Source: Gammaproteobacteria bacterium
GTDB lineage: Bacteria; Pseudomonadota; Gammaproteobacteria; Eutrophobiales; Eutrophobiaceae
DNA length: 64,000 nucleotides
Direction: 5' to 3'
NCBI GenBank assembly: GCA_963422205.2
Contig: CAXMWX010000009.1
Coordinates: 96,001-160,000, forward strand
Shown here: piece after piece, positions 8,622-27,748 of the stretch
How the letters are laid out: each line of letters begins with the position of its first letter
Numbering within the stretch: position 1 is the first letter of the stretch
Program-made: the position numbers and the translations under genes
Notes under the pieces: model-generated
What the model was told of the DNA's origin: nothing
Databases searched by the model: none
The model's input: only the letters and a program-made list of their open reading frames with translations

Positions 8622-9620
8622 ATGCCGCCGGTTCATAAAATTAATGCCATTGAACAAAACGCCCGTCCGCCGCCCCGTCATGACTGGCGACTTGATGAGG
8701 TTATCGCCTTGTACGGGCAGCCGTTTAATGATCTGCTGCATCAGGCACACGGTGTTCACCGGCAATGCTTCGATCCTAACGAGGTGCAGTTAAGCACGCT
8801 GCTGAACATAAAAAGCGGCGGTTGCCCGGAAGACTGTGCCTACTGCCCGCAAAGCGCCCGTTATGATACCGGACTGAAGGCAGAGGGCTTGATGTCTTAT
8901 GAGCAGGTCATGTGCGCTGCCGAGGCGGCGGCGGCCAGTGGCGCCGGGCGTTTTTGTATGGGTGCGGCCTGGCGCTGCCCGAAAGATAAAGACCTGAAGC
9001 AGGTGGAGGAGATGGTGCGTGGTGTCAAATCCTTGGGGCTTGAAACCTGCCTCACGCTGGGCATGTTGACAGGGCAGCAGGCAGAGCAACTGGCCGCCGC
9101 CGGGCTGGACTACTACAACCACAACCTTGACACCTCGCCTGAGTATTATGAGAAAATTATCACCACCCGCCGCTATTCTGATCGCCTGCAAACCCTGCAA
9201 CATGTGCGTGATGCCGGGATCAAGGTCTGCTGCGGTGGCATTTTAGGGCTGGGCGAATCAACGCAAGATCGTGCCCGCCTGCTGCAAACCCTGGCCAACC
9301 TGCCAGAGCATCCCGAAAGCCTGCCGATCAATCTGTTTGTCAAGGTGGCGGGTACGCCATTGGCAAAAGACAGCAATTTTGATGAGTTTGATCTGGTCAG
9401 GACGGTTGCCATTGCCCGCATTCTCATGCCGACTGCCCGGCTGCGGCTCTCTGCCGGACGGGCAGAGATGACCGACAGCCTGCAAGCCCTGTGTTTTCAT
9501 GCCGGCGCCAACTCGGTCTTCTACGGGGAGAGACTGCTGACTACCGAAAACCCGGCGTATGGCAGGGATGAGGCATTGTTTGCCCGGCTGGGGATGCGCT
9601 CGAACACGGCAACGGCCTAG
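8622..9620 (+). CDS. bioB: Biotin synthase
   Basis: [11 protein letters not shown] radical SAM motif, YNHNLDT, VCCGGI. Confidence 0.98.
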
Positions 9621-22181: not shown

Positions 22182-22209
22182 ATCGGAGTGAAAATTCCAG
22201 CGAAAGTTC
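22182..22209 (-). promoter_or_regulatory. sigmaE (RpoE/AlgU)-type promoter for rpoH
   Basis: Minus strand GAACTT-N16-TCCGAT directly upstream of the CIRCE. Confidence 0.7.
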
Positions 22210-22235: not shown

Positions 22236-23189
22236 TCACACCGGGTCGATCGTCTTGATATGACGCTGCACCGAGAAAAATGCGCCTGAAACACCGAGCA
22301 GGGCACCAGCCAGCATCAGCCCCAGCACGCCGGACAGCCCCAGGGCGGCGAGCTCGAAATCGCTGCTATACAGGGCGGACAGGCGGCTGACCGGCGCATG
22401 CAGCACCATGACGGCAGATTGCAGCAGGAGGCAGGCGATCAGGCTGCCGATGATGCCATGCAGCAGGCCATAGTAAAGAAATGGCCGTTGAATAAAGGCA
22501 TTGGTGGCACCGAACAGCTTGTGTATCTCAATTTCCTGGCGGCGGTGGTAGATGGCCAGCCTGATCGTGTTGCCGACAATAAGCAATACAGCAAACCCCA
22601 GAATAACAGACAGCAGCAGGACGGTACGCTGGGCGACTTCCATGATCAAAAACAGCCGTTGCGCCCATTGCTGATCCAACTGTGCCGTGTTCACCTGTGG
22701 CAACTGCCGAAGGCGTACCAGCAGGGCCTGGCTGTCGGCAGCGCTCAGATCAGTCTCAGGCTTGACCATAAGCACGTTGGGCAAGGGATTCTCTGTCAGC
22801 AGATCAAGGGCCTCATCAAAACCGGATAACAGCCGGTATTCCGCCAGGGCGTCAGCACGACTGATCATGGCAACGCCCAATACCCCATCCATGTTACGCA
22901 CATGTTTAGCTAACGAAGCGGCCTGTTCCTCGGTGTAACTGTGTTGCAGGAATAACGAAATATCCGCGCTGTCTTCCCAGTTATCGGCCAGTTTTTGTGC
23001 GTTTTCCAGCAGCAGGTAAAAGCCCGCAGGCAGTGCCAGAGAAATGCCGATCACCGCCGTGGTCAATGCCGTGCCTAAGGGGTTTTTATAAAGCTGCCCT
23101 AAGCTGAAGACAAATGCCTGGGCGTGCTGCATCAGCCAGATTTTCAGCGCTTTGTTGATGCTGGCCTTCAGCCGTTTGCCTTTATTCAA
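22236..23189 (-). CDS. ftsX: Cell division permease FtsX
   Basis: ENPLP, VGNTIRL, EIEI.KLFGAT..FI.RPFLY.G. Confidence 0.95.
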   Translation of the reverse strand: MNKGKRLKASINKALKIWLMQHAQAFVFSLGQLYKNPLGTALTTAVIGISLALPAGFYLLLENAQKLADNWEDSADISLFLQHSYTEEQAASLAKHVRNMDGVLGVAMISRADALAEYRLLSGFDEALDLLTENPLPNVLMVKPETDLSAADSQALLVRLRQLPQVNTAQLDQQWAQRLFLIMEVAQRTVLLLSVILGFAVLLIVGNTIRLAIYHRRQEIEIHKLFGATNAFIQRPFLYYGLLHGIIGSLIACLLLQSAVMVLHAPVSRLSALYSSDFELAALGLSGVLGLMLAGALLGVSGAFFSVQRHIKTIDPV

Positions 23190-23863
23190 CGTTTAACGGT
23201 CTCGCCAATATGAGTCAGCAGGCGGCCCTGCCGCAGGGTGATGATCTTCTTTTTCAGTTTTTTGATCATGTCAAGATCGTGGCTGGCGATCAGCACGGTG
23301 ACGCCAACCTGATTAAACTGTTCAAACAATTTCATGGTGTCCCAGGACAAGGCCGGATCGAGATTGCCGGTTGGCTCATCGGCAAGCAATAATACCGGCT
23401 GATGCACCACCGCTCGGGCAATCCCAACGCGCTGTTGTTCGCCCCCGGACAGCGCCAGCGGCATGGCATTTTTTCTCGCCAGCAGCCCGACTTTATCAAG
23501 CGCAGCATGGGTGCGCTTGCGCGTTTCCTGGTAGGAATAGCCAGCGACGATCAATGGCAGGGCAACATTGTCAAAGATGGTTCGATCATTCAGCAGCCGA
23601 TGATCCTGAAAGGTAAAACCAATGCTGCGTCGGTATAACGAGATGCGGTTTCCGGTGATGCGACTCAGGTTTTGACCATTGACGATGATCTGCCCGTGTG
23701 CCTGTCTTTCAACCAGGGCGATGAGCCTTAACAGCGTGGTTTTGCCAGCACCGGAACGACCGGTCACATACACCATCGCGCCCCGTTCAATATACAGATT
23801 GATCTTGTGCAGGGCTTCCTGGCCGTTGTTGTAAGACATGTTGACATCGGCGAATCGAATCAT
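23186..23863 (-). CDS. ftsE: Cell division ATP-binding protein FtsE
   Basis: GRSGAGKT, FQDHRLL, LSGGEQQRV, LADEPTGNLD; ftsYEX order. Confidence 0.96.
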   Translation of the reverse strand: MIRFADVNMSYNNGQEALHKINLYIERGAMVYVTGRSGAGKTTLLRLIALVERQAHGQIIVNGQNLSRITGNRISLYRRSIGFTFQDHRLLNDRTIFDNVALPLIVAGYSYQETRKRTHAALDKVGLLARKNAMPLALSGGEQQRVGIARAVVHQPVLLLADEPTGNLDPALSWDTMKLFEQFNQVGVTVLIASHDLDMIKKLKKKIITLRQGRLLTHIGETVKR

Positions 23864-23864
23864 C

Positions 23865-24812
23865 TCATCTCACACTCAACAGGGCATTGACAAAATCCTC
23901 AGCGACAAACGGCCTCAAGTCGTCCGTGTGTTCGCCGATACCAATAAATTTAATGGGGATATGGAGCGTCTGCGCCAGAGAGAAGACAATCCCGCCTTTG
24001 GCCGTGCCATCCAGCTTGGTCAGGATGATGCCGTCAAGCCCGATAGCCTCATGAAACCGCCTTGCCTGGATGAGCGCATTTTGCCCGGCGGTGGCATCGA
24101 TGACGAGCAGCGTTTCCTGTTGCGGGCGGGGGCTGAGTTTGTTGATGGTGCGCGCGGCTTTTTTCAACTCCGCCATCAGATTGTCCTTGGTGTGCAGCCG
24201 TCCGGCGGTATCGGCCAGCACGGTGTTCGCCTGTTTTGCCCGGGCGGATTGCAGCGCATCAAAGATAACAGCAGCACAATCCGCCCCCGCCTGATGTGCA
24301 ATAACCGGAATGTTGCTGCGTTGCCCCCAGCTTTGCAGTTGCTCAATAGCGGCTGCTCGGAAGGTATCACCTGCGGCCAGCAAAACATCCTCGCCCTGGC
24401 GTTGTAATAAACTGGCCAGCTTGCCTGCGGTTGTCGTCTTGCCAGCACCGTTGACGCCAACCAGCAATATCATCCTCGGCCTGGTGTCGCTGTCCAGCAG
24501 GGCGGCATCGGCCTGTAATGGCTGCAAAATCGCCAGCAGTTCCTGCTGTAGCGCCCGCATGATGGCGTGGTCATCTCCACGCTCAACACGTTGCAGCCTG
24601 CCCGGCAGCTTGTCGATGATCTGCATGGTGGTGTGTATGCCCAAATCGGCCTGTAACAGGCGGGTCTCCAGTGCTTCCAGAGTGGCCTGATCGAGCTCGG
24701 TTTTGCCGTGCAGCAGATCGCCCAGGCCGCTCATGAAGGCGGTGCGAGTCTTGCCCAGACCCCGACTGAGGCGGCTAAACAACGCGCGTTCTCCTGAGTT
24801 ATTGGCAGACAT
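23865..24812 (-). CDS. ftsY: Signal recognition particle receptor FtsY (short form, no long acidic domain)
   Basis: GVNGAGKTTT, DTFRAAA, DTAGR, TKLDGTAKGG. Confidence 0.97.
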   Translation of the reverse strand: MSANNSGERALFSRLSRGLGKTRTAFMSGLGDLLHGKTELDQATLEALETRLLQADLGIHTTMQIIDKLPGRLQRVERGDDHAIMRALQQELLAILQPLQADAALLDSDTRPRMILLVGVNGAGKTTTAGKLASLLQRQGEDVLLAAGDTFRAAAIEQLQSWGQRSNIPVIAHQAGADCAAVIFDALQSARAKQANTVLADTAGRLHTKDNLMAELKKAARTINKLSPRPQQETLLVIDATAGQNALIQARRFHEAIGLDGIILTKLDGTAKGGIVFSLAQTLHIPIKFIGIGEHTDDLRPFVAEDFVNALLSVR

Positions 24813-24864
24813 GATATCCGGGCATAGTGTGGCGATATGCTAATAAGCTATCGTAACATTATCT

Positions 24865-24961
24865 GTCGGAGAACTACTAAATCCGAACCGACTCTAACCA
24901 ACACTAAGAGCATTGACCGGCGCAACGTCGGAGAACTACTAAATCCGAACCGACTCTAACC
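24865..24961. CRISPR. Orphan CRISPR-like mini-array: two identical 35-bp repeats and one 27-bp spacer
   Basis: GTCGGAGAACTACTAAATCCGAACCGACTCTAACC at 24865-24899 and 24927-24961; spacer AACACTAAGAGCATTGACCGGCGCAAC. The repeat itself is certain; the CRISPR identity is inferred. Confidence 0.45.
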
Positions 24962-25023
24962 GGCGGGCAGACAGAGTGATCTGTGTTCAGGCATAATAGG
25001 GGCGAAAACCATCGGAGGCCGCT

Positions 25024-26403
25024 GTGCGCTATTTATGTGTTGTATTGACCTTGCTTGCGATGCCGCTGCCAGCAGGCGGACAGGTGCAGGAATTTGTCTT
25101 TGAGAACGGGCTGAAATTGCTGGTGAAAGAAGACCATCGTGCCCCGGTGGTGGTCTCGCAGGTGTGGTACAAGGTGGGCGGCAGCTACGAACACCCCGGC
25201 ATCACCGGCATCTCTCATGCGCTGGAACACATGATGTTCCAGGGCACGGAAAAATACCCGGGCGGCGAGTTTTCCCGCATCATTGCCGAGCAGGGCGGGC
25301 GTGACAATGCCTTTACCGGCGCCGATTACACCGCTTATCATCAAACGCTGGAAAAATCACGGCTGGCGGTCAGCTTTGAGCTGGAGGCTGATCGGATGCG
25401 TAACCTGTTGCTTGAAGAGCAGGATTTTACAAAGGAGATGGAAGTGGTCAAGGAAGAGCGCCGGTTGCGTACTGAAGACAGGCCCAGCGCCTATTTGTAC
25501 GAAGCCGCCATGGCAACGGCCTGGCAGACCAGCCCCTACCGGCATCCGGTGGTGGGCTGGATGGCTGACTTAAATGCCATGACCCGGCAGGATTTGCAGC
25601 AATGGTATCAGCGCTGGTATGCCCCGAATAATGCGATAGTCGTTGTTGTCGGCGATGTCGTTGCTGCCGAGGTTTACACGCTGGCAAAGCAGTATTTTGC
25701 CGACTTGCCGATGAGAGAAATCAGGCCGCCCCGGCCCCGGCCCGAGGTCAGGCAGGCGGGCATGAAGCGCCTTGTGGTGAAGCGTCCGGCCCGGCTGCCC
25801 AGCCTGCTGATGGTCTATAAAGTGCCATCATACAAGACGGCATTGCAGAGCGAGAGCATCGCCGACTGGGAGCCTTACGCCCTGGAGGTGTTGAATTATG
25901 TGTTAAGTGGCAGCAGCAGTTCCCGCTTCGCCCGTTACCTGGTGCGTGGTGCTGAGGTGGCGGCCACGGCCAGCGCATCGTACTCCCTCATCGATCGGCT
26001 GGATGGCAGGCTGTTGATCCGTGCTGTGCCGGTGGAAGGCAAGCGCCTTGCTGAACTGGAGCGGGCGATCTACGAGCAAATAGATTTATTGCAAACCAGG
26101 CCGGTGACACAACAGGAACTGGAGCGGGTGAAGATCGCCGTGGTGGCGGCGGATATCTATGAGAAGGATTCGATTTTTTATCAGGCCCTGGTGCTGGGCA
26201 TGCTGGAGGCAAACGGCCTTGGCTGGCAACGGGCGGATGAGTATGTCGAGAAGATCAAGGCGGTCACCGCCCGGCAGGTCATGGCGGTGGCGAAGAAATA
26301 TTTGCAGGCGGATGGTTTGACCGTTGCCATGCTGGAGCCGCTGCCGCTGGTGCCAACGGCGGCACAGCGAGCGCCGTCGGCGGGGGGCCGACATGGGCGA
26401 TAA
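25024..26403 (+). CDS. M16B zinc metallopeptidase, catalytic subunit
   Basis: Signal peptide, inverted zinc motif HALEH, NAFT, VVKEERR. Confidence 0.92.
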   Translation: MRYLCVVLTLLAMPLPAGGQVQEFVFENGLKLLVKEDHRAPVVVSQVWYKVGGSYEHPGITGISHALEHMMFQGTEKYPGGEFSRIIAEQGGRDNAFTGADYTAYHQTLEKSRLAVSFELEADRMRNLLLEEQDFTKEMEVVKEERRLRTEDRPSAYLYEAAMATAWQTSPYRHPVVGWMADLNAMTRQDLQQWYQRWYAPNNAIVVVVGDVVAAEVYTLAKQYFADLPMREIRPPRPRPEVRQAGMKRLVVKRPARLPSLLMVYKVPSYKTALQSESIADWEPYALEVLNYVLSGSSSSRFARYLVRGAEVAATASASYSLIDRLDGRLLIRAVPVEGKRLAELERAIYEQIDLLQTRPVTQQELERVKIAVVAADIYEKDSIFYQALVLGMLEANGLGWQRADEYVEKIKAVTARQVMAVAKKYLQADGLTVAMLEPLPLVPTAAQRAPSAGGRHGR

Positions 26404-27748
26404 GGGCCTGTTTTTATTCATCTGCCTGCTGCCCGCCGCTTATGCCGGGCCGAACATCGTCAAATGGCAGGCCGAGGGCGGCAGCCGGGTGTTCTTTGTT
26501 GAGACAGACGAGTTGCCCATAGTCGATATCAAGGTATTGTTTGATGCGGGCAGCGTACGTGACCCGGATGAGATGGGCGGTCTGGCGCTATTGACCAACG
26601 GCCTGCTGGATCAGGGGGCGGGCGGCCTTGATGCGAATCAAATCAGCGATCAGTTTGAGCGCACAGGGGCGGTGTATCGGGCAAGTGCCGGCCTTGACAG
26701 TGCCTCGGTCAGCTTACGCAGCCTGACAGACAGGCAAGCCCTGCAACCTGCCCTGGCCAACCTGGCACGGGTGCTCGCCTCGCCTGATTTCCCTGATCAG
26801 GCGGTTGCCCGGCAGAAAAAACGCCTGCTGACGGCACTGGAGGCGAAGCGACAATCGCCGGGCGCCATCGCCAGAGATAATTTCTTTGCCGCTATTTACA
26901 AAGCGCACCCCTATGCCAGGGCAAAAGAGGGCACCGAGACCAGCATTGAAGCGATCAGCCGGGCCGACATCATCGGCTTTCATCGGCGCTATTACACGGC
27001 GAATAACGCCCTGGTTGCCATTGTCGGCGCCCTGTCGCGCACCGAGGCTGAAGCGGTGGCCGGTAGGCTGACCGCCAATCTGCCGCAAGGAGAACGGCCA
27101 GCACCGCTGGCCGCGGTCAGCGGGCTTGCGGCGGGCGATGAGATACGCATCTCCCATCCCTCATCGCAGGTGCATGTCCTGCTGGGGCAGCCGGGCATGG
27201 CGCGCACCGAGGCGGATTATTTTCCTCTATACGTTGGCAACCATGTGCTGGGCGGGTCGGGCATGGTCTCCCGGCTGTTTGAAGAGGTTCGTAATCAGCA
27301 CGGCCTGAGCTACAGCGTCTACAGCTATTTCTCCCCCCGCCGGGAAAAAGGCCCGTTTGTGGCCGGTTTGCAGACCCGGGCCGAGCAGCAGCAGGAGGCG
27401 TTGCAGTTGTTACGCACGCTGATCACGCAGTATACCCGGGTCGGCCCCACCGAGGCCGAGTTGCGGGCATCGAAGTTAAATATAACCGGCGGTTTTCCCT
27501 TGCGCCTCGACAGCAATGCCAAAATTCTGGATTATGTTGCCACCATCGGTTTTTATGGCCTGCCCCTGGATTATCTTGACACCTATGTTGACCAGGTGAA
27601 TGCCGTGACAGTTGAGCAGATCAAACGCGCCTTTGCCGAACATATTGACCCGGACAAGTTGGTGGCGGTTCTGGTCGGCCCCAGCGATAACAATGGTAAT
27701 AACAACGGCAATAACTCCCGCGCGGATGACAAGCAAGAAAGGCCGTAA
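26393..27748 (+). CDS. M16B peptidase, non-catalytic partner subunit
   Basis: M16 fold motifs (FDAGS, SRLFEEVR..GLSYSVYS) but no HxxEH. ATG at 26393. Confidence 0.88.
   Translation: MGDKGLFLFICLLPAAYAGPNIVKWQAEGGSRVFFVETDELPIVDIKVLFDAGSVRDPDEMGGLALLTNGLLDQGAGGLDANQISDQFERTGAVYRASAGLDSASVSLRSLTDRQALQPALANLARVLASPDFPDQAVARQKKRLLTALEAKRQSPGAIARDNFFAAIYKAHPYARAKEGTETSIEAISRADIIGFHRRYYTANNALVAIVGALSRTEAEAVAGRLTANLPQGERPAPLAAVSGLAAGDEIRISHPSSQVHVLLGQPGMARTEADYFPLYVGNHVLGGSGMVSRLFEEVRNQHGLSYSVYSYFSPRREKGPFVAGLQTRAEQQQEALQLLRTLITQYTRVGPTEAELRASKLNITGGFPLRLDSNAKILDYVATIGFYGLPLDYLDTYVDQVNAVTVEQIKRAFAEHIDPDKLVAVLVGPSDNNGNNNGNNSRADDKQERP

Follow-up and report, generated by a model that had tools for sequence, protein, structure and literature searches.

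A 35-bp duplication around a 27-bp insert between ftsY and an M16 peptidase gene: a probable natural off-target integration by type V-A Cas1-Cas2

Off-target integration by the adaptation proteins Cas1-Cas2, spawning new CRISPR loci (neo-CRISPR loci), was reportedly described by Nivala, Shipman and Church (2018, Nat Microbiol) for over-expressed type I-E proteins of Escherichia coli. According to passages of related papers, such integration by the E. coli type I-E proteins forms neo-CRISPR arrays (10.1101/148544; PMC7054753; PMC6698737), and its natural frequency and persistence are described as unclear (10.1101/148544). A further source, in its relevant part, lists off-target acquisition among three origins that have been proposed for isolated arrays (10.64898/2026.04.27.721218). 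The excerpts of the literature on the topic that we consulted hold no case of natural off-target spacer integration by a type V-A system. Here we analyze a window of 64,000 nucleotides from a Gammaproteobacteria bacterium (Eutrophobiaceae; GenBank assembly GCA_963422205.2, contig CAXMWX010000009.1, positions 96,001 to 160,000). In its 211-bp intergenic spacer between ftsY (minus strand) and an M16 peptidase gene (plus strand), two identical 35-nt units enclose a unique 27-nt segment, a structure that an earlier note on this DNA had read as an orphan CRISPR-like mini-array. We consider it probable that type V-A Cas1-Cas2 integrated one spacer off target here and thereby duplicated 35 bp of putative promoter, a natural event of the neo-CRISPR type. 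The evidence also leans toward a wider statement, namely, that this wild genome records a V-A spacer insertion outside an array, which would amount to the birth of a one-spacer neo-CRISPR together with the duplication of an RpoE-type envelope-stress promoter at the ftsY/peptidase operon.

The locus comprises the following features (positions in the window).

24847-24863, minus strand: conserved box A, GCTATCGTAACATTATC, recognized by family comparison; its minus strand reads TGTTACGAT (24858-24850), a putative extended -10-like promoter element toward ftsY
24859-24867, plus strand: pseudo leader-repeat junction, TTATCT on the leader-like side and GTC on the unit side (TTATCT + GTC), identical to and in register with the V-A junction at G000:C7:463030-463038
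24865-24899, plus strand: unit 1, the native copy or "pseudo-repeat," found by repeat search, with its ancestral upstream context kept and a single homologous copy in G001 and other genera
24900-24926, plus strand: unique 27-nt insert AACACTAAGAGCATTGACCGGCGCAAC, the putative spacer; its length is the mode of the V-A array spacers, and it has no second copy
24927-24961, plus strand: unit 2, the duplicate, with the same sequence as unit 1 (repeat search, Logan) and its native context kept downstream, on the side of the peptidase gene

The two copies of the unit, GTCGGAGAACTACTAAATCCGAACCGACTCTAACC, are 100% identical and start 62 nt apart; sequence inspection and a repeat search confirmed what the earlier note had said of them. 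At up to three mismatches, the window holds two matches to the unit, and none of 100 shuffles had any. A search of the whole genome holding the window (G000; 2.99 Mb, 14 contigs, 98% complete; 2,988,056 bases searched) gave two forward and no reverse matches, and thus no copy beyond the two. By size, the structure conforms to the rule for CRISPR arrays (repeats of 23-47 nt, unique spacers of similar size) at its minimum of two repeats and one spacer; Tandem Repeats Finder reported no 62-nt period at the locus. The internal palindromes ascribed to the unit, GTCGG/CCGAC and TCGGA/TCCGA, are present, but the unit folds on either strand no better than shuffled sequences (z of -1.16 and -1.33; 23 of 200 shuffles equal), and the same applies to the whole unit-spacer-unit structure. 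Its reverse complement begins with GGTTAGAG and not, as had been claimed, with GTTAGAG.

The structure is real and not an assembly artefact. Positions 24870-24956 lie on one 87-nt Logan contig, which runs from unit 1 through the spacer into unit 2, in two of three sequencing runs, the two belonging to the same study. The unit-to-spacer depths of these runs, a crude measure in Logan contigs, were 1900:941 and 12:6. This is a ratio of 2.0 in both, as two units and one spacer predict. Two observations could speak for an artefact or for a longer array that was collapsed: a break of the Logan graph at the 35-nt unit, which makes the copy number unreadable from contig paths alone, and depths of unit and spacer in run X2 that are 3.1x and 1.5x the flank depth. 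Against them stand the bridging contig and the depth ratio in both runs, and neither loose ends nor alternative joints are reported at the structure in the Logan graph. We see practically no chance for this explanation.

Judged by its relatives, the unit is native sequence and not a foreign CRISPR repeat. The sole other genome of the same genus (G001) has one homologous copy of the unit at the same place, preceded by an identical copy of the 17-mer GCTATCGTAACATTATC and including GAACTACCAAATC. When the ftsY intergenic region was compared more widely, a single-copy site was seen in G001 and at 6 of 19 family loci. The boxes are in register family-wide: TATCsTAnCAT, 7 nt on GAACTAC(y)AAA, and then TCTAA, the last of which reads TCTAC in G001. 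The pattern GAACTN-N16-TCTNA occurs once per locus, upstream of the peptidase homologue and on its strand, in the loci of 6 of 19 relatives, compared to a chance expectation of 0.0018 per locus.

The boxes of promoters recognized by RpoE (sigmaE) are spaced by approximately 16 nt, and the rpoH gene of E. coli has a sigmaE promoter. Passages on the E. coli RpoE promoter give GGAACTT as its -35 and TCAAA as its -10 element (PMC1312014; PMC1540707). Unit 1 carries a -35-like GAACTA (24871-24876) and a -10-like TCTAA (24893-24897) with 16 nt between them, and in unit 2 the same elements lie at 24933-24938 and 24955-24959. With this GAACTA-N16-TCTAA layout, the unit has what is expected of promoters of RpoE and other extracytoplasmic function (ECF) sigma factors, namely, a -35 element like GGAACTT, a -10 element like TCAAA or TCTGA, and a distance of about 16 nt. 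The same architecture is found at 22183-22209 on the minus strand, between ftsX and rpoH, where GAACTT-N16-TCCGA lies upstream of rpoH; we take it to be a sigmaE-type candidate comparable to P3 of E. coli rpoH. Furthermore, an RpoE gene is present in the genome (297 bits; cut-off, 236). The likeness to RpoE promoters thus consists in the box layout of the unit, in the 6 of 19 relatives' loci, in the upstream region of rpoH and in the presence of this gene. From these sequence features, we infer that the unit holds an RpoE/ECF-type promoter of the peptidase gene and that the region consists of two back-to-back candidate promoters. The second is box A, whose minus-strand pattern TGnTAsGATA is conserved in seven genomes (G000, G001, G006, G007, G024, G004 and G018) and which was left untouched by the insertion. 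The previous suggestion that the structure could affect the flanking promoters was therefore apt, in that the unit appears to be the peptidase promoter and abuts a conserved extended -10 facing ftsY, the promoter role being putative.

It had also been stated that no cas, tnpB or other effector gene lies in the 64 kb. For the families searched this holds, but it is misleading, as two full CRISPR-Cas loci are present on other contigs. A whole-genome scan for spaced repeats detected two real arrays, both outside the window contig, and the two Cas1 matches of the genome are likewise outside the window. The type V-A array (G000:C7:463036-463887) has 14 repeats of 36 nt ending with AATTTCTACTGTTGTAGAT and a period of 61-64. 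Its 13 spacers measure 25 nt (one), 26 nt (three), 27 nt (seven) and 28 nt (two), with a mode of 27. The array lies directly downstream of cas12a, cas4, cas1 and cas2. The products of the latter three match the type V Cas4 profile TIGR04328 (232 bits), the type V Cas1 profile TIGR04329 (381 bits, profile positions 1-316 of 317) and the Cas2 profile TIGR01573, and with full-length open reading frames (ORFs) for all three, the V-A adaptation module is apparently intact. The cas12a gene (G000:C7:457042-461117; L024 6043-10118) is split into ORFs of 977 and 386 amino acids (aa) in different frames, by what looks like a 1-nt deletion just before the RuvC-I motif IDRGERHLAYY (L024 ~8936-8940). It is either a pseudogene or a sequence error, and the frameshift could postdate the insertion.

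The second array, of type I-G (G000:C3:551684-563450), has 162 repeats, a period of 71-75 and spacers of ~35-39 nt; near C3:552004 and C3:552077, one spacer occurs twice in succession. It adjoins genes (L027 555-10564) for a Cas4g/Cas1g fusion (827 bits), Cas3g, a Cas3-extension, Csb2 (twice) and Csb1. The I-G module was rejected as the integrase, since its spacers are ~35-39 nt long and neither end of its array matches the site. A type II origin, which the GTTAGAG likeness had brought to mind, was rejected as well because no Cas9 above the cut-off was found in the genome; there were five weak matches to the HNH region (19-35 bits; cut-off, 100). One TnpB-like fragment lies at C7:482259-482414.

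The geometry of the site, 35 + 27 with a period of 62, is that of the V-A array and not that of the I-G array. Which bases matter to a V-A integrase is described in passages of a study of the Francisella system (Hille et al. 2026, PMC13034035): Cas1-Cas2 recognizes the leader-repeat junction without host factors, recognition depends on positions -3 to -1 of the leader and on bases 1-6 of the repeat while the middle of the repeat is largely negligible, a ruler helps to set the second site, and prespacers of 27-29 nt work best for full-site integration. In G000, the V-A leader ends with ...GATTTATCT and the repeat starts with GTCTAAGACC; at the site, the left flank ends with ...ACATTATCT and unit 1 starts with GTCGGAGAAC. 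Aligned in register, the left edge of unit 1 agrees with the V-A junction at 10 of 12, 12 of 16, 14 of 20 and 16 of 24 bases, and it shows no difference from it at positions -6 to -1 and +1 to +3. Equally good matches were given by 200, 185, 151 and 144, respectively, of the ~5.98 million windows of the genome (both strands). Seven control pairings, made with the distal end of the V-A array, the two ends of the I-G array and the right boundary of the site read backwards, matched at 4-7 of 24 bases, which is the chance level. The genome has three occurrences of the shared junction positions, TCTGTCnnAGAnC. Besides the V-A junction and this site, there is one at G000:C5:182450 (minus strand), where no duplication is present.

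The likeness is restricted to the leader side, as expected of a neo-CRISPR target site. The body of the unit agrees with the V-A repeat at 11 of 36 ungapped positions, with a local alignment equalled by 1458 of 5000 shuffles, and local scores against the I-G repeat were equally low (11 and 12). Such a similarity, confined to the junction, is the pattern that Francisella V-A Cas1-Cas2 needs according to the consulted passages of Hille et al. In a survey of 401 genomes of the class for the V-A handle, we found no comparable leader junction. Taken together, the geometry and the left-boundary match point to Cas1-Cas2 as the probable maker of the structure.

The same survey brought up two arrangements of V-A-like repeats in other genomes. 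In contig G425:C1, from the same class, the Cas12a handle, AATTTCTACTATTGTAGAT, is dispersed over both strands as 22 solitary copies; what follows each copy is unique sequence with no second repeat, and TATAAT lies a few bases upstream of several (for example, L042 1484-1519; L044 1484-1519 and 1649-1684; L048, L050, L052 and L054). They look like stand-alone genes for CRISPR RNA (crRNA)-like transcripts scattered on the chromosome. In G187 (reverse complement of L037, ~880-1700), near-identical segments of ~165 nt seem to break up V-A-like repeats after AATTTCT, so that the units measure ~200 nt; next to them, one intact repeat-spacer-repeat is found.

In the course of events that we propose, the integrase (Cas1-Cas2, with Cas4) would have taken TTATCT + GTC, in the variable linker between the back-to-back promoters, for a leader-repeat junction. 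The first cut would have been made at TCT/GTC and the second one repeat length downstream, at 35 bp instead of the canonical 36; a 27-bp prespacer would then have been ligated in, and gap repair would have duplicated the 35 bp to give unit-spacer-unit. The outcome would be two tandem copies of the putative peptidase promoter, 62 bp apart, unit 1 retaining the left context (the ftsY-facing -10) and unit 2 the right context (the 5' region of the peptidase gene). Since both genes keep their promoter-proximal DNA, we propose that the insertion was tolerated, with an effect on peptidase expression that may be neutral or mild. The event seems to be recent, because the copies are identical at 35 of 35 positions, including bases that vary freely among genera.

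How the site compares with the described systems can now be stated. As in the E. coli neo-CRISPR loci, native DNA of about repeat length (35 versus 36 bp) is duplicated around a spacer-sized insert (27 nt, the length of 7 of the 13 V-A spacers) at a junction-like site, in a genome whose ORFs provide the matching integrase and adaptation module, with cas12a frameshifted. In contrast to those loci, as far as passages citing that work describe them, the proteins would here be of type V-A, acting naturally in a wild genome and not over-expressed type I-E; the duplication is 1 bp below the repeat length, and the duplicated segment is a putative promoter. With the canonical V-A array of G000, and that of Francisella novicida as described in part of PMC13034035, the site shares the period of 62, the 27-nt spacer, the TTATCT + GTC junction and the leader-like side on the left. 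It differs from them in that the unit is 35 and not 36 nt long and has no 3' handle (AATTTCTACTGTTGTAGAT in the real repeat), and in that there are a single spacer, no AT-rich leader past 6 nt and no adjacent cas genes.

Several observations weigh against integration by the V-A module. The duplication measures 35 bp and the V-A repeat 36; in the in vitro data of the Francisella study, as far as its consulted passages go, changes of 1-3 bp in repeat length sharply reduced full-site integration (PMC13034035). The first six "repeat" bases match at four of six positions (GTCGGA versus GTCTAA), bases 4 and 5 being different. The terminal TCTA/TAGA motifs are missing, with TCTA absent at the start and not rightly oriented at the end of the unit, and passages of the same study describe TCTA as important at both repeat ends. 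They also report that Cas12 strongly boosts acquisition in vivo, and cas12a is frameshifted here. In addition, the junction likeness was sought after the hypothesis had been formed, and 144-200 other windows match equally well. No protospacer, and hence no protospacer-adjacent motif (PAM), was found in the collections searched (own genome, relatives, viral, metagenome, phage and plasmid sequences). Nor was a same-species strain without the insert found: the flank pattern was present in no metagenome contig and, in genome_contigs, in G001 only. This is a different species, and downstream of the unit its intergenic sequence has diverged too far to provide a clean "before" allele. As for the promoter part, the strict motif occurs genome-wide only at the two units and shuffles give 2-4 occurrences, so that there is no enrichment; no such motif is evident upstream of rpoE. 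In these two respects the unit departs from the RpoE promoters.

The searches with the spacer, which the earlier note had considered worth comparing with phage and plasmid data and with the host genome, revealed neither a source nor a target. At up to three mismatches, it matched only itself in its own genome and only the G000 copy in an order-level set of 126 genomes (G000 and 125 relatives). There were no exact matches in metagenome_contigs and none in viral_contigs, either for the 27-mer or for two 20-mers; the best phage match had an E value of 0.2 (19 nt) and the best plasmid match one of 0.6. A 15-mer at C13:137600 was rejected as the spacer source, as it is a chance match with the other 12 bases unrelated. 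The absence of a target is weak evidence, since most natural spacers also have no matches.

Some of these points equally favor an origin outside CRISPR adaptation, that is, a staggered break of ~35 bp, or 35 copied bp plus 27 bp of filler, with a merely coincidental likeness to the V-A array. Candidate processes are repair with filler DNA, template switching, and an unknown mobile element leaving a footprint with a long duplication of its target. Such an origin would fit the missing protospacer and PAM, the duplication of 35 instead of 36 bp, a unit body unlike the V-A repeat, and a junction test that was post hoc and equalled by 144-200 windows. However, it needs three independent coincidences: the duplicated stretch comes within 1 bp of a repeat in length, the insert has the modal length of the spacers, and the junction matches as only ~3 in 100,000 windows do, moreover in register and on the correct side only. 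Furthermore, the 27-mer is unlike the flanks, and no further copy of any part of the structure is present in the genome. To our knowledge, the target duplications of transposons are far shorter (2-15 bp). A non-CRISPR origin is, in our judgment, unlikely. A diverged 62-bp tandem duplication was rejected because the 27-mer resembles the flanks (40 nt on each side) or the unit no more than shuffles do (456-2818 of 3000 equal) and Tandem Repeats Finder shows no such period. The genome contains 17 other perfect spaced repeat pairs with periods that are mostly multiples of 3, and both pairs looked at more closely proved to be plain tandem duplications. The idea that an ectopic event had taken place a second time in this genome was rejected, as the other spaced perfect repeats have coding periods or are plain tandem duplications. 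We also considered a tandem duplication of a regulatory site, by any mechanism, that was selected because it raises or tunes the expression of the peptidase gene (or of ftsY). The conserved boxes with promoter-like spacing in the unit and the RpoE encoded in the genome would agree with it. Yet it concerns the consequence rather than the origin of the structure, all relatives have one copy, and the identity at 35 of 35 positions, including the nonconserved N16 and linker bases, argues for a recent event and not for long-term selection. We regard it as quite improbable.

The reading first given to the locus was that of a stand-alone guide-RNA module, in which a repeat-spacer RNA would guide, or act as a decoy for, a distant or unrecognized RNA-guided protein. 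Its form is indeed repeat-spacer-repeat, CRISPR-Cas loci exist elsewhere in the genome and, should the boxes be a promoter, transcription from unit 1 would cover the spacer and unit 2. But the unit is conserved native DNA of a promoter region, single in the relatives, and folds at shuffle level. It matches no CRISPR-DR family of Rfam, the sole Rfam match being a snoRNA model with an E value of 5.6, and belongs to no repeat family known to the resident Cas proteins. With no similarity to the V-A or I-G repeat and, by sequence reading, no 3' handle hairpin for Cas12a, it should be recognized neither by Cas12a nor by the I-G processing enzyme. The spacer has no match to a mobile element or other target in the searched collections, cas12a is frameshifted, no Cas9 is present, and there is only a TnpB-like fragment. 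Isolated or orphan arrays share with the site the location far from cas genes; in typical ones, the repeat is genuinely that of a known system and there are several spacers, while the site has a pseudo-repeat made of host promoter DNA. A Cas12a guide is unlikely to arise from the structure, and we hold a guide module of any kind to be highly improbable. What survives of the CRISPR interpretation is the origin, which is probably CRISPR related; the function as a guide module is unsupported.

We therefore favor off-target integration by V-A Cas1-Cas2 as the probable origin of the duplication. With one locus, no protospacer and no empty-site allele behind it, the claim is a lead and not proof.

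The remaining annotated features of the window that adjoin the structure are listed below. The profile matches bear out the assignment of the flanking genes as a divergent ftsY and M16 peptidase gene.

23186-23863, minus strand: ftsE, following ftsY
23865-24812, minus strand: ftsY, 315 aa, NG-domain form (SRP54 GTPase, PF00448, E value of 2e-76)
24968-24997, plus strand: sigma-70-like match CAGACA-18-CATAAT downstream of unit 2, a consensus match only (1 found, 0.4 expected)
25024-26403, plus strand: first gene of the M16 peptidase pair (PF00675 and PF05193), the presumed target of the duplicated promoter
26324-27748: second gene of the M16 pair

In G001 (L004 555-1320), ftsE comes directly after the conserved promoter region, with no ftsY between them, and its product is 77% identical to FtsE of the window. 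A search of G001 (92% complete, 200 contigs) with the FtsY protein of the window gave no match. That ftsY is missing beside the G001 promoter region may reflect a true deletion, a move of the gene to another place or a fault of the assembly. Elsewhere in G000, the region C7:765000-790000 is an island of low G+C content (34-40%, compared to ~52-55% elsewhere) with many small tandem duplications, such as a diverged 60-bp duplication at C7:777809-777929.

Off-target integration has been shown mainly with over-expressed type I-E proteins of E. coli, and a natural V-A case with a clear donor would be a concrete example. If our interpretation is true, the junction bases sufficient in vivo would be TCT/GTC plus a few more. 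An integration error could then be free of cost if the flanking promoters are both restored by the duplicated segment. Caution on the part of annotators is accordingly called for with two-repeat "mini-arrays" in housekeeping spacers, as these may be scars of adaptation and not guide modules. The CRISPR adaptation machinery would then be a natural source of seeds for new arrays and, in housekeeping regions, of regulatory duplications.

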